The notes beneath the pieces are model-generated. The model did no database searches. It was not told the DNA's origin and was given only the letters and a program-made list of their open reading frames with translations. Position numbers and translations under genes: made by a program. From sequence record MK327943.1: a DNA stretch of 64,000 nucleotides. One strand, written 5' to 3'. Below, piece after piece: positions 14,624-36,546 of the stretch (within the stretch, counting starts at the first letter, position 1; each line of letters starts with the position of its first letter). This stretch comes from Escherichia phage vB_EcoM_G53.

Positions 14624-14641
14624 TTAAAATTTTCTCGCAGG

Positions 14642-14938
14642 TTATTGTTCTACCCATGAACAAGAGACTTCAAAATCAGGACCACCGTATTCCCAGTGAT
14701 ATTCACCAACAGGAATCCAGTCACCGTGCTCGTTTTCTTCATAGTCCTCAGGCTCAAGGCCAACGAATCGCCATTGGACACCGATGATTCGATTACCCAT
14801 CATTACTCGAAATTCGCCCCATGGATTATCGATAGCATACTGAATATCGTTCTTGGCACGAGAGCACATTTCTTGATATAATAAAGCTTCTAATTCACCC
14901 TTGTCATAAGGACCAGGGAAAGTTAAATCAATACTCAT
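14642..14938 (-). CDS. Hypothetical acidic protein
   Basis: 98-aa ORF, Trp/Glu-rich. Confidence 0.5.
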   Translation of the reverse strand: MSIDLTFPGPYDKGELEALLYQEMCSRAKNDIQYAIDNPWGEFRVMMGNRIIGVQWRFVGLEPEDYEENEHGDWIPVGEYHWEYGGPDFEVSCSWVEQ

Positions 14939-29304: not shown

Positions 29305-29840
29305 TGCATTCCAATCACAAAAAATTGAGGACGAGCATTACCGCCGATGCAATATTTGCTTTTGCAACAGTGTTGGACTGTTTTAATATGTACATTGTAA
29401 ATCTTATCCATATCAGGAGCTTTAATAGGCTCGTCAATTATATACAGAATACGAGAAAGCGTTAATCCACGGAATTTAGAACCTTCATTGCCAATAAAAC
29501 TACGAACAGAATCAGTAAATAAACGGAATCGAATATCGTCGCTAGAATAACGAGAAAATTCTTTTTCAATGTTGCCAGCAGAAATTTTAGCATAAGCTGA
29601 AGTATTAGAAAGAACAATAACTGTTCCGCCATCATACAGCCAATTAGCAGCAAAGTTAGTCACAGCAATTGATTTACCTGATTGTCGGCCGCCGTCTAAA
29701 CGAAGTGTACAGTACTGCTTGAGTACGTCTTCAAATGGTGGGACATAACCGTTCTTACAAATTTCTTCTACTCTAGCATCAGAATGGTGTGTAAAAGCAT
29801 TCATCAGGGATAGATAAGGTCCAGTTAAAAATGTTCTCAT
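29301..29840 (-). CDS. P-loop protein, function unknown
   Basis: 179 aa from MRTFLTGPYL; Walker A-like DGGRQSGKS. Confidence 0.55.
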   Translation of the reverse strand: MRTFLTGPYLSLMNAFTHHSDARVEEICKNGYVPPFEDVLKQYCTLRLDGGRQSGKSIAVTNFAANWLYDGGTVIVLSNTSAYAKISAGNIEKEFSRYSSDDIRFRLFTDSVRSFIGNEGSKFRGLTLSRILYIIDEPIKAPDMDKIYNVHIKTVQHCCKSKYCIGGNARPQFFVIGMQ

Positions 29841-30012
29841 ATTATTTCTCTTAAGGTTGGGGCCATTCCGTGGCACATGTTAGGTCCTTCGACTCGCTAT
29901 GTAAACCCATTACCGCATTGCGCTCGACCTTATTACAGGTTGGAAAAGGTACATCACTCAGAGGACTCGACGTTCATGAGGAGAGGTTGCGTTTCCCTTT
30001 ATTAGGCAAGAA

Positions 30013-30342
30013 TTATACTCTAGGCTTTTGAGCTTGTTTGGTATTGGATTCCCATGCGGCTTTGGTAATTTTGTTAGCGGCATAACCAAAGGCATTAGAT
30101 AGAACACCTTTAGAGTTGAATACATCCAATCCAATAAGTACACCGGCTGTGTTAAATTTAGGAGCAAAGTACGCATTAGTTTTAGAAAGAACTTTTTTCA
30201 ATTCAGGGTCTTGAACCAAGCCATCAAAAACGCCTTTACTATTTACTTTGTATGTTACTTTGGGATTTTTACCTTCTTCGATAGCAGCTTTCTGTTCCGC
30301 AGATAATGTAACTTCAGTGATAAACTCCTGATATGTTTTCAT
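30013..30342 (-). CDS. Internal protein (IP) candidate with capsid-targeting N-terminus
   Basis: 109 aa starting MKTYQEFITE, the conserved N-terminal capsid-targeting sequence of T4 internal proteins. Confidence 0.75.
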   Translation of the reverse strand: MKTYQEFITEVTLSAEQKAAIEEGKNPKVTYKVNSKGVFDGLVQDPELKKVLSKTNAYFAPKFNTAGVLIGLDVFNSKGVLSNAFGYAANKITKAAWESNTKQAQKPRV

Positions 30343-30367
30343 TTTGTTCCTATTGTTTTAATTTATG

Positions 30368-30682
30368 TTATTCTTTAGGGAAGTTTTTAGAGTATGCATC
30401 ATAAAGTTTATTACCAATACGACGGAAGACTTTAGCTGCAAAACGGTTTTCAGGGTTTTTAATCATGATTTGCATCATGTAAGTTCCTGCATCCGAAAGA
30501 GCTTCTTCATAGTACCCATTAATTTCTTTAAGAGTCCTACGTTTACCGCCAGGACCATCAACAGTAATTTTCCATTTACCTGTAGAAGTGCGGCTCGGTG
30601 GCTCAACTTGTTCAATCCAAATATAACCACCTTCAACGCGTTGGTTGGCGGATTCTGCAATAAATTCTTTATACGTTTTCAT
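30368..30682 (-). CDS. Internal protein (IP) candidate with capsid-targeting N-terminus
   Basis: 104 aa starting MKTYKEFIAE; body unrelated to the neighbouring IP. Confidence 0.75.
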   Translation of the reverse strand: MKTYKEFIAESANQRVEGGYIWIEQVEPPSRTSTGKWKITVDGPGGKRRTLKEINGYYEEALSDAGTYMMQIMIKNPENRFAAKVFRRIGNKLYDAYSKNFPKE

Positions 30683-30746
30683 TTTTTGTTTCCTTGTTTG
30701 TTTTGATAGAGTAATTATACCATATTAATACTTAAGCGTAAACAAT

Positions 30747-31427
30747 TTAAGCTTTACCGCCAGAAATAATTCCGAAGTTGTTAAAATCGTATCCAATATC
30801 GTCAACATCTACTTTAGGGCTTGCTACAACATAAGCAATTTCACTACGTTTTGCATAGGTGTTGATTTCTTTACCATCGCCACCTAAGAAAGAATACCCA
30901 TTACGTTTTAATGAGCCAAAGTCTTCCGCATCACCAATGAAAGCTTTAACTTTAAATTTGGGGTCTTTGGCATCTGCTTCAATGATAAATTCTTGATACA
31001 TTTTCATTTTTTCCTTAGTAAATTGATTACCATAGTATTTGTACCAAGTCGGACGTTGAGCAATTTTTTCATCTAAGCGTGCTTGACTTATCGCAATGGA
31101 CGCTTCGGACGGGACGTAATTATTACGAAATTCGGCAGGAATGTCGGAAATATCCTGGACAGTCGTGTCCTTGATTTTGAAACCGCGTTTCAAGCATTCA
31201 GCGATTAGCTCGATTTGTCGTAAACGTAAAAATTCGAGTTTGTCGTAAAAGAATGTTACGTGACCTGTGCCTAAGATAAATGTTGGAGAGATTTTAAAAT
31301 CCTTTACACGTTTACCGTTTTGAACATGTTTACGGACTGCACCAAATACGCGTGGTAATTCACGATACTCAGCCATAAGATGTTGGTCGGACAGTTCAGA
31401 AACAAGTGTTAAATTGATACGAGTCAT
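30747..31427 (-). CDS. denV: Endonuclease V (DenV, pyrimidine-dimer glycosylase) with an in-frame C-terminal extension that is an IP-like ORF
   Basis: First ~140 aa [34 protein letters not shown]... match T4 DenV; the frame then continues with no stop through [18 protein letters not shown]... to 30747. An internal ATG at 31007 has SD TAAGGAAAAA. Confidence 0.8.
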
Positions 31428-31485
31428 AATTTCCTCCAAGTAGTTGATGAATGTATAGTATCAAAACCCTTGGAGGAAGTAAACA

Positions 31486-31767
31486 CTATTTTTCTGAAGC
31501 GCCTGAAATATATTTTTCAAGACGTTGTTTCATTAGCGAGCCGTTCTTAGCGATTTCTTCCGGTTTATCGCACATACGTAACAAGGCTTCAAGCTTAGCG
31601 ATATCGCTGGTACGTTCAAATTTGCGAGTATCTATTTTACTAGCAAGTTCAGAAATACGTGCTAATAGACTTTCAGCTTCAACCAAAGCTGCACCTAGCT
31701 TAGTTGCAAATGTGTCGGTAGCTTCGTTAAGAATAGATTCTGATAAAAATTCACTATATGTTTTCAT
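31486..31767 (-). CDS. Internal protein (IP) candidate with capsid-targeting N-terminus
   Basis: 93 aa starting [10 protein letters not shown]; ATG overlaps the lysozyme stop (ATGA). Confidence 0.7.
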
Positions 31768-32252
31768 ATATACGCTTTCCAAGTTCCTGTTTTAAATGTT
31801 GAGATTACGCGTTTCGCGCGATTAGGTGTCTGACGATACCATTTAGATTGGGCTAGATTTACTGCCGCTTCATCCCAACGTTTCTGTTGAAGCATACGAA
31901 GAGAATTAGTAAAACCGGCGACGCCTGCTACACCCATTTGGAAGACCATATTGACCAATGCACAACGACGAACTGCATCTAAAGAATCATACACCGGTTT
32001 AAGTTTAGCATTACCCAAGATTCCGCGAACGGCTTTATCAATGTCTTCATTAAATAGCTTTTCAGCCTCATCAAGGGTAATTGTACCGTTGCATTTATGA
32101 CCGATCATTCTGTCAAGTTCAGCTTTAGCTACGGCTAAAGACGGGTTCTTTGTTACCAAATGGCCTATGCCAATCGTCCAAAAGCCTTCGGTGTCTTTGT
32201 ATAAAGTCAGTCTAAGACCTTCGTCATTACGAAGCATTTCAAATATATTCAT
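31764..32252 (-). CDS. e: Lysozyme (endolysin) e
   Basis: 162 aa [32 protein letters not shown]... closely matches T4 lysozyme, including catalytic Glu11/Asp20 context. Confidence 0.95.
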
Positions 32253-32254
32253 AA

Positions 32255-32278
32255 TACCTCCCACGTTTATAGGAGGTA
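32255..32278 (-). promoter_or_regulatory. Hairpin sequestering the lysozyme SD (T4 e-gene type translational control)
   Basis: Minus-sense TACCTCC-TATAAACGTG-GGAGGTA then TT ATG; the 3' arm contains the SD GGAGG 5 nt from the e start; loop contains a late-promoter-like TATAAA. Confidence 0.6.
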
Positions 32279-32286
32279 TTTATTAC

Positions 32287-32745
32287 TTATAGGAGTGTAG
32301 TGAGCACCTTATATAATGATTTACCCATTACATATTCCCATTGAGAAGGTTTAATTAAAGCGAATGCATCAAATTCAGGAATCTGTCGTCCGTCTGGGAA
32401 TGTATGATAGGAATTACAAACACTGTTTCTGAATTGCTCGTGCTCTACAGGGATGGTATATAGGAACAGATGAATATTCTTATTGTCTGAGTAATGATGT
32501 TCACCTAGGTCTTTCAGGAAGGCAGGGTCATATTGTGTAAACCCGGTTTCTTCTTCGCATTCGCGAATAGCGGCTTCAATAGGAGATTCGCCAGGTTCGA
32601 CACGGCCTTTAGGAATATCCCACCGATGAGCTAATGCACCTTTAGGACGAGAACCAGTTACACGGCCCATGAATAACTCTTTATCTTTTGACATGAAGAT
32701 AATACCGGCTGATAGCTCTTTCACTTTATTTTTCTTACTCATCAT
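32287..32745 (-). CDS. nudE: Nudix hydrolase NudE
   Basis: 152 aa; Nudix box GRVEPGESPIEAAIRECEEETG; position next to e as in T4. Confidence 0.85.
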   Translation of the reverse strand: MMSKKNKVKELSAGIIFMSKDKELFMGRVTGSRPKGALAHRWDIPKGRVEPGESPIEAAIRECEEETGFTQYDPAFLKDLGEHHYSDNKNIHLFLYTIPVEHEQFRNSVCNSYHTFPDGRQIPEFDAFALIKPSQWEYVMGKSLYKVLTTLL

Positions 32746-32971
32746 CTCGGTCCCATGATTTGGCCATTAATTCGGACATAAATTCTTCAATGCGCGTTTC
32801 TTTAGATGGACTTTCACTATTAGAGACCGCAAGTTTGTAATCTGCAATAGGACAGAACATATCAAGGTCCATATTAAGGTCGTCTTTGATTTTTTCTTCT
32901 GACACATCTTTATCGTATGTGTACAGATAACTATCACATGATTCTGATTTAATGTAAATTGCTATACTCAT
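32735..32971 (-). CDS. Hypothetical acidic protein
   Basis: 78 aa from MSIAIYIKSESCD; start overlaps the upstream stop. Confidence 0.5.
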   Translation of the reverse strand: MSIAIYIKSESCDSYLYTYDKDVSEEKIKDDLNMDLDMFCPIADYKLAVSNSESPSKETRIEEFMSELMAKSWDRDDE

Positions 32972-33447
32972 CTCAAATTCCTGCATTCGGTAATAAAACG
33001 TTCAACTTCATTATTCTTGGCTTTTATCTTGTCTTTATGTTCTTGTAAACTACTTTTAATAAGATTAATAATGATAGCGACGGTGCCGCCGCCAATGATG
33101 CCACCAATAATACTTACGATAGTAGATGCTAATAAGATAGCAATAATATCAACAAAACCGAAAGAACTCACCTTAGTACTAAAAAACCATACCGACGGTA
33201 CAAATATAATCCATCCTGTTATCCATTGGCACTTATTGAAAAACTTTTCAAGCTCAGCTTGAGTTGTTCGTATTACTTCATCGATAGGTTGATATCCATT
33301 AATGTATCTGTTCACGATAATACCTGCTGGCTGGTCGATTTTAAATTCTTGGCAAATATGTTTCACTAAGTAGGATGGACATCCTGTCCAATCTACTGAA
33401 TAGTATGAAATACCTTCGTTGCCATCGTCTATATTATTGTTAATCAT
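32968..33447 (-). CDS. Hypothetical membrane protein ending in the FIxECR junction motif
   Basis: 159 aa; hydrophobic helices in the middle; C-terminus ...ERFITECRNLR. Confidence 0.55.
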   Translation of the reverse strand: MINNNIDDGNEGISYYSVDWTGCPSYLVKHICQEFKIDQPAGIIVNRYINGYQPIDEVIRTTQAELEKFFNKCQWITGWIIFVPSVWFFSTKVSSFGFVDIIAILLASTIVSIIGGIIGGGTVAIIINLIKSSLQEHKDKIKAKNNEVERFITECRNLR

Positions 33448-34133
33448 TACCAGCCTTCCATAGGGAATTCCAGATAAACTTGAGCATTGACACGAATTTC
33501 ATTGGTAATCTTTTTAACTCGGTCTGTATTACGAGATACACGTCCGAACCAACGCCATCCATTACTAATTGCACGAGAACCAGTGTGCCATGTTTGCCAA
33601 TCAAACTGAAGAAGAGTACGGTCTGGAGCTTCCCATTTCTCTAGTTCACCTTTTTCAATTTTTTCGAGGACTTCTTTGTGCCACTGACGATAGATAAGTT
33701 CGCCATCAGGAATCTGACTGAACTCTGCAGTTCCTGTTGCAAAATGAGTAGGACACACATCAGCGTTAACAAGACCAAGAATATGTTCAGAATGGTAACG
33801 AGGGTTGTCATAGTCAGGTTGTCCTGCAGTAATAAAGTGTTGTCCAACTGGAATATCAGGGCGTGGAACATCGTCATGGTGATATCCAGGAATAGCAGGG
33901 TACCAACCAGGCATCAGCATATGAACCCGAGAATCAAATACAACATGTTGATTAGTCCAATCAATTGGGAGATTGGCAATAAAGCTACGAGTGATTGAGC
34001 CACCATTATCCCAAGCAAAACCCAAATCACAATTAAAGAACATTGGTTCATTTTTGATTCGGTCATTTTGTACGTTATGTGCAAAACTACCAACTGCACG
34101 AGCTTGACTATTAAACACTTTAGAACTATTCAT
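33447..34133 (-). CDS. Hypothetical protein (228 aa), His/Trp-rich
   Basis: Long ORF; contains HHDD and several His; fold not recognised by eye. Confidence 0.6.
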   Translation of the reverse strand: MNSSKVFNSQARAVGSFAHNVQNDRIKNEPMFFNCDLGFAWDNGGSITRSFIANLPIDWTNQHVVFDSRVHMLMPGWYPAIPGYHHDDVPRPDIPVGQHFITAGQPDYDNPRYHSEHILGLVNADVCPTHFATGTAEFSQIPDGELIYRQWHKEVLEKIEKGELEKWEAPDRTLLQFDWQTWHTGSRAISNGWRWFGRVSRNTDRVKKITNEIRVNAQVYLEFPMEGW

Positions 34134-36273: not shown

Positions 36274-36546
36274 TTAGCAAGTGTGAGAAGATGCGACCCA
36301 ACCACCAGTTTCGAGGCTCAGGTTGTAGTCGTATTGGTAAACGTCAGCCCATTCAGCATAGCCGTTTTTTGTACAACGTTCAAGATCGGCTTTAAGATGT
36401 CCGGGTGAATGATAGGTTCCACCCATACCATAAGCTGGGTACAAGTTGAACGTTGTGTTTTGTTTATCAGCAATTTCTTTGGCAGCCTCAATAGCTGCAT
36501 AGATTTTTGCTACAGCTTCAGCCAGTTCGGTTTGTTCTTTAGACAT
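36274..36546 (-). CDS. Small protein, member of the C-terminal GWVSSSxxC family
   Basis: 90 aa ending ...ETGGWVASSHTC; N-terminal region similar to 36556-36861. Confidence 0.55.
   Translation of the reverse strand: MSKEQTELAEAVAKIYAAIEAAKEIADKQNTTFNLYPAYGMGGTYHSPGHLKADLERCTKNGYAEWADVYQYDYNLSLETGGWVASSHTC

Follow-up and report, generated by a model that had tools for sequence, protein, structure and literature searches.

The window, i.e. the whole stretch of 64,000 nt from Escherichia phage vB_EcoM_G53 (MK327943, Mosigvirus) that was analysed, carries on its minus strand one open reading frame (ORF) in which a denV gene runs into a gene for an internal head protein (IP). This fused denV::IP ORF occupies 30747-31427, from the ATG at 31427-31425 to the TAA at 30749-30747 (681 nt, 226 codons plus TAA), and its predicted translation product of 25.9 kDa has the layout DenV(1-133)-NQFTKEK-IP. 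A Shine-Dalgarno (SD) sequence for denV, GGAGGA, was read from the sequence at 31432-31437 (minus strand). An upstream TTG start at 31439 (230 aa) was set aside, since the ATG at 31427 follows GGAGGA and yields the canonical DenV N-terminus MTRINL. The DenV part comprises codons 1-133 (31029-31427, minus strand, MTRINL...RPTWYKYYG), assigned with PHROG 1183, PF03013 and the T4 structures. It is followed by a frameshifted linker, NQFTKEK, as residues 134-140 (31008-31028, minus strand, AAT CAA TTT ACT AAG GAA AAA) in place of the native K-S-I-Y-stop, and by a complete IP gene of 86 codons plus TAA (30747-31007, minus strand, PHROG 2667), which supplies residues 141-226 and ends in GGKA. The first-pass annotation had described an unbroken ORF at 30747-31427 with two domains and an embedded ATG at 31007 with an SD of its own; the coordinates and the matches to PHROG 1183 and PHROG 2667 bear out the former, and the latter is indeed preceded by TAAGGA at 31017-31012. 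By the strength of these profile matches, the two-domain composition is not a product of chance. The fused coding sequence (CDS) is already known from public annotation: the 226-aa CDS stands in GenBank as QBO65262.1, 'putative pyrimidine dimer DNA glycosylase', of phage vB_EcoM_G53.

In the DenV part, residues 1-134 of the fusion matched PHROG 1183, endonuclease V, with E = 2e-61 in a profile search, and the match to PF03013 reached 51.3 bits at a cut-off of 23. The T4 endonuclease V structures 2END (E = 4e-79) and 1VAS aligned without gaps over residues 1-134 at about 88 % identity. Thr2 directly after the initiator methionine, which we take to be the catalytic N-terminal residue, as well as Arg22, Glu23 and Arg26 are present (MTRINL..., ...AEYRELPR..., residue for residue with 2END), presumably in the roles known for T4 endonuclease V. 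The aromatic segment WYKYY (residues 128-132), which we assume to be the functional C-terminal segment of the T4 enzyme, is unchanged, and the frameshift begins at residue 134. A search of the open-access literature gave nothing usable on what the very C-terminal end of the T4 enzyme does. The ORF has neither the T4-like size of 137-143 aa nor the ending G-K-[AS]-I-Y; it is 226 aa long with 96 residues after WYK, where close T4-like homologues have tails of 7-12 residues. Among the DenV homologue clusters, about 20 of 120 have tails of 16-112 aa after the WYK motif, so the DenV fold appears to accept C-terminal extensions. Because all known catalytic and DNA-binding elements precede the change, the DenV activity is probably kept in the fusion. 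A further long tail was seen in the 242-aa protein of Salmonella phage SD-2_S15 (P0051), which departs from its 171-aa relatives (P0054, P0049) right after WYKFTDVE and continues for about 100 residues more; it may be another frameshift read-through into an adjoining ORF.

The C-terminal part of the fusion matched PHROG 2667, 'internal head protein', with E = 3e-20 to 3e-21 in the profile search, and the orthologues of RB69 and APCEc01 bear the same name in RefSeq, a name given by annotation only. The family is narrow, with 12 clusters found. An exact look-up retrieved the 86-aa sequence as QBP05738.1 of phage PHB12; as it was recorded only under PHB12, the G53 record appears to be without a separate IP gene. 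The start region is formed by the SD TAAGGA (31012-31017, minus strand), which overlaps the old denV stop, followed by four A and the ATG at 31007-31005. All relatives inspected have this TAAGGA(A)n ATG start in common and annotate the IP separately. The number of A between the GG of the SD and the TG of the start codon (window 31007-31012) was compared in the Mosigvirus sequences L001, L002, L003, L006 and L008: five were found in RB69, moskry and the metagenome contig L006, six in APCEc01 and the window, and seven in G2285. With this start intact, free IP is probably still made from it, so that independent synthesis, as proposed in the first-pass annotation, is a reasonable expectation. One gene call (P0145) shows NQFTKEK upstream of the IP, from which it is seen that no stop closes the IP frame where it extends back into denV; as a second fusion it was ruled out, because the call merely takes an earlier in-frame ATG, within denV, as the start of the IP ORF.

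The first ten residues of the IP (30978-31007, minus strand, fusion residues 141-150) form a decapeptide that resembles a capsid-targeting sequence (CTS), with Tyr4, Phe7, Ile8 and Glu10, and is common to three neighbouring IP-like ORFs and to the IP homologues. The CTS of T4 is of the type MKTYQEFIAE. Initiation at the IP's own start places the decapeptide at the N-terminus of the free IP, while it is internal in the read-through product. Positions 4 and 7 of the CTS matter for targeting, and the cut made by the head protease involves positions 8 and 10 (PMC9026906). Altogether four ORFs around denV begin with MK[TM]Y[QKS]EF[IL]xE, all on the minus strand (31767-31489, 31007-30750, 30682-30371 and 30342-30016), and one of the decapeptides reads MKTYQEFITE. 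They fall in PHROGs 3499, 2667, 3966 and 3966, two of these families being labelled 'unknown function', and the mature parts of the other IP-like ORFs are only 18-35 % identical to the IP behind denV. The mature parts of T4-type internal proteins are highly diverse (PMC3012670), and the ORFs at 30016-31767 look like a typical variable internal-protein cluster. In a search for a late promoter from which the IP could be transcribed separately, no exact TATAAATA was present within 29500-33500, which is odd for head proteins; the lone candidate nearby, TACAAATA with one mismatch, lies inside the WYKYY codons, and no claim is drawn from it. A near-consensus sigma-70-type promoter (TTTACG, 17 nt, TG-TATAAT; 10 of 12 matches) was observed on the minus strand at 30714-30742, right behind the stop of the fused ORF and ahead of the next IP-like gene. 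Ahead of denV lies an element of the form GTTTAC-18 nt-TACTAT (31484-31455).

The cause of the fusion was located by aligning the junction. In the relatives it reads GGT AAA TCA ATT TAC TAA, encoding G K S I Y stop, and in the window GGT AAT CAA TTT ACT AAG GAA AAA ATG, encoding G N Q F T K E K M. Against RB69, APCEc01 and moskry, the window lacks a single base, in GGT-AA(A)-TCA, and the gap recurred against mar009P5. Accordingly, the junction alignment and the indel lists of the whole window place a one-base deletion at 31027-31028 (minus strand), where AA is left of the AAA codon for Lys134; the undeleted reading of 31031-31023 would be GGTAAATCA. The deletion-bearing junction is GGTAATCAA, the two-gene junction GGTAAATCAA. 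At the aligned Lys134 codon, AAA is present in RB69, APCEc01, moskry, G2285 and the metagenome contig, and the mar009P5 lineage (mar005P1 records) has AAAA in GGT AAA ACA. The first-pass annotation had offered natural loss of the stop codon as one cause and an indel as another. The alignment decides for the indel: the ancestral denV stop TAA is intact at 31015-31017 (minus strand), out of frame, with the deletion sitting 10 nt upstream of it, and it is bypassed through the change of AAA to AA at 31028-31027. The TAA is skipped because the deletion puts the last four denV codons in the +1 frame, which is that of the IP, and the agreement of this shifted frame with that of the IP depends on the run of six A between the GG and the TG of the window's start region. 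Relative to RB69, the denV stop is thus flanked by two changes, -1 at the deletion and +1 in the spacer. Judged by these alignments, the fusion is an RB69-type pair of denV and ORF125c with a private one-base deletion and not a new gene design.

The distribution of the fused form was followed through nucleotide and protein collections. Over the 781 nt compared, identity to the best-matching phages of the RB69-like group (Mosigvirus) is 97.7-98.8 %, with 97.8-98.8 % for RB69, APCEc01 and moskry, 98.7 % for mar005P1 and 98.1 % for G2285. RB69, APCEc01, moskry and G2285 annotate two genes here, a 137-aa DenV and an IP of 84 or 86 aa, and the mar009P5 record does likewise. Whether two separate genes stand in the reference annotation, a point raised in the first-pass annotation, has a divided answer: they do in all inspected relatives including the RB69 reference, whereas G53's own GenBank record holds the single 226-aa CDS. 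None of 176 matching phage records, from a collection without MK327943 itself, was identical over the 86-nt junction, and the best of them differed from the window solely in the one-base gap. When the junction peptide was used as a tblastn query, each of the 30 best-ranked relatives had its two parts either in separate frames or in one frame interrupted by a stop; since a true fusion would rank first, none appears to be present. Among the 120 matches listed from 5.8 billion protein clusters there was no other full-length fusion, coverage being at most 77 %, and the close DenV relatives (137-143 aa) in this list cover about 60 % of the fusion. An exact look-up of the 226-aa protein found only G53's own CDS, and no independent assembly was found among contigs encoding the fused protein. 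Exact-pattern searches of IMG/VR, the JGI metagenomes and GTDB, which hold almost no Mosigvirus, gave no match to the deleted junction. A control pattern from the conserved upstream flank had no match in IMG/VR and GTDB and matched one metagenome contig, with a normal junction; because the control matched only this contig, the exact-pattern negatives were given almost no weight. By these comparisons the deletion is private to G53.

We estimate a probability of about 0.6 that a real, tolerated one-base deletion private to vB_EcoM_G53 is the explanation, the best one available, and that the fusion arose by accident in an accessory gene that the phage can do without. A change in a lone deposit is also how an error would look, and an error of consensus or assembly is possible, though we do not consider it probable: the true sequence would be GGT AAA TCA ATT TAC TAA with two ordinary genes, of which one A was lost and from which a chimeric CDS was called. 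The change is a single-base deletion inside a mononucleotide run, and every relative checked has AAA (AAAA in mar009P5), including the sibling G2285 of the same study. A consensus built from PacBio reads alone is prone to leftover single-base deletions. G53, isolated from pig manure in Hameln, was described by Korf et al. 2019 (PMC6563267), who sequenced by PacBio RSII (HGAP3) or by MiSeq (SPAdes) without stating the platform for each phage; PacBio RSII with HGAP3 as one of the two platforms of the study would fit such an error. The reported coverage of 258.6x argues against it, as does the run length of only three bases. Runs of three bases are not a typical error hotspot. The normal AAA of G2285, which passed through the same study and pipeline as G53, speaks against a site-specific artefact of the pipeline.

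The quality of the assembly was judged by listing every indel that separates the window, over its full 64 kb, from mar009P5 and from RB69. The denV deletion was the only private, uncompensated indel inside a conserved gene, so the assembly does not appear to be generally indel-prone; an error would thus have struck at this site with no other private coding frameshift in 64 kb. Three further positions were considered and rejected. At 36365 the deletion belongs to the mar005P1 lineage and is no second private frameshift; 14934 marks the border of an exchanged gene cassette whose ORFs are intact; and 30681 lies in a non-coding SD-ATG spacer. At 36365 (ORF 36274-36546, minus strand) the window, RB69, JK42 and APCEc01 have a run of six T, and the five mar005P1 assemblies listed have five, which shortens the ORF from 90 to 76 aa and alters its tail (L004, 28198-28425). 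Being common to five records, the mar005P1 frameshift, in a small accessory gene, is real. Around 14934, a 98-aa ORF on the minus strand (14642-14938) lies right behind nrdC, and no alignment with mar009P5 or RB69 was obtained over 14640-14923, an interval that takes in most of this ORF; a small cassette appears to have been replaced where two genes meet. At 30681, a polymorphism of five versus six bases similar to that ahead of the IP of the fusion precedes the next IP gene.

Other records from this accessory region contain frameshift and deletion variants that appear genuine, which also argues against a consensus error in G53. Frameshifted tails occur in the IP homologues P0140 and P0142-P0144, from isolate genomes and sequencing-run assemblies, and the IP recorded for phage UFV13 (P0141) has only 50 aa; damage to the IP gene, or errors in its sequencing, appear to be frequent. 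In one sequencing-run contig (L007, Logan SRR29457804_122560, 1244-1408), an in-frame deletion of about 505 nt fused codon 30 of denV with the final 24 codons of the IP. The product is a 54-aa protein (P0146), and the breakpoints overlap in about 12 nt of imperfect similarity. The RB69-like phage of this contig has lost denV function. Frameshifts and deletions are evidently tolerated in the denV-IP accessory region, and the frameshift common to the five mar005P1 records, in another small ORF, is a further instance of such damage.

If the deletion is real, its consequences would be as follows. The loss of one A from the AAA of Lys134 would shift the last four denV codons to the +1 frame, and the 6-A spacer of G53 would make this the frame of the IP. 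Ribosomes initiating at the AUG of denV would not terminate before the end of the IP and would form the 25.9-kDa chimera. Others could still start at the intact TAAGGA-AAAA-AUG and would probably produce free IP. The yield of IP may change, because the termination event 7 nt upstream would be lost and elongating ribosomes would cross the start site. In T4, denV is dispensable for growth in the absence of UV; the mutation would therefore be nearly neutral.

A functional fusion, in which the DenV-IP chimera was selected or the junction is a programmed recoding site, is very improbable in our estimation. The arrangement invites the thought: in the majority of the relatives, those with five A such as RB69, denV and IP already lie in one frame with only TAA GGA AAA between them, the CTS-like decapeptide is intact at Tyr4, Phe7, Ile8 and Glu10, the positions tied to targeting and cleavage (PMC9026906), and fusions to the CTS or to IPIII carry foreign proteins into T4 heads (PMC3012670, PMC9026906). 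However, the fusion is not conserved (0 of 176 relatives), the spacer of 5, 6 or 7 A does not maintain the relative frame of the two genes, documented CTS cargo always has the CTS at the N-terminus (PMC9026906), the folding of the junction RNA does not surpass that of shuffled controls (z = -0.68), and by eye there is no slippery heptamer at the junction. As the ORF is continuous in the DNA, no recoding would be needed. The lack of conservation, a frame that varies with the spacer and the ordinary structure of the junction RNA speak against programmed read-through or frameshifting. Packaging of the chimera is conceivable but unsupported. In its most specific form, the chimera would enter the prohead through its internal CTS, the protease would cut after ...IIE, and a 17.7-kDa DenV fragment would be injected with the genome; we regard this as the least credible of the scenarios. 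If it were true, G53 would bring a finished repair enzyme for pyrimidine dimers into the cell along with its UV-damaged DNA, and would represent a natural case of CTS-mediated cargo loading with the cargo upstream of the CTS.

With a private one-base deletion as the preferred reading, the biological weight of the fusion is small: both families are known, the relatives have an ordinary arrangement, and GenBank already contains the fused CDS. For curation, QBO65262.1 should be flagged, since a gene for an internal head protein lies concealed in it without annotation, and so should a mixed protein cluster. This cluster, of 475 sequences at 90 % identity (P0001, P0121, P0122 among them), was seen to contain 137-aa DenV proteins together with unrelated IPs of 84 or 86 aa. 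The two are probably linked through G53's 226-aa CDS, and such a mixed DenV/IP cluster could spread wrong names between the families. If the deletion is real, G53 would be a natural test of the tolerance of DenV to a C-terminal appendage of 93 residues and of a CTS in a position other than the N-terminus, the latter being relevant to groups that package foreign proteins by means of the T4 CTS.

Among the known systems, T4 endonuclease V agrees with the fusion over residues 1-133 including the key residues and differs in its native tail, G-K-[AS]-I-Y(-A/N), in place of which G53 has NQFTKEK and 86 further residues. In the long-tailed DenV homologues of 171 aa (P0054, 134 member sequences), 179 aa (P0041) and 242 aa (P0051), the polypeptide likewise extends past WYK; tails of this type, unlike that of G53, are lineage-typical, occur in more distant phages (53-68 % identity), some on contigs of more than 300 kb, and are not an appended neighbour gene. 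With IPI, IPII and IPIII of T4, the IP has in common the CTS-type decapeptide, the small size and the clustering of several genes in a variable region, but beyond the CTS no similarity of the mature part is detectable. T4 heads have been loaded with engineered fusions to the CTS or IPIII (Hong and Black 1993; Mullaney and Black 1996, summarized in PMC9026906), which are, like the predicted product of G53, one polypeptide of a CTS-bearing IP and an unrelated enzyme. In them the CTS is N-terminal or the cargo stands behind IPIII, whereas in G53 the enzyme precedes the CTS, an order for which no precedent is reported (PMC9026906). The closest system is the pair of RB69 denV (RB69p126) and RB69ORF125c (RB69p125), found also in APCEc01, moskry, mar005P1 and G2285. 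Genes, gene order and SD are alike, and the neighbours e, another IP, two more IP-like ORFs and vs.8 are common to these relatives and the window; the relatives differ in having AAA (AAAA in mar005P1), a working TAA and two proteins in place of the single 226-aa ORF.
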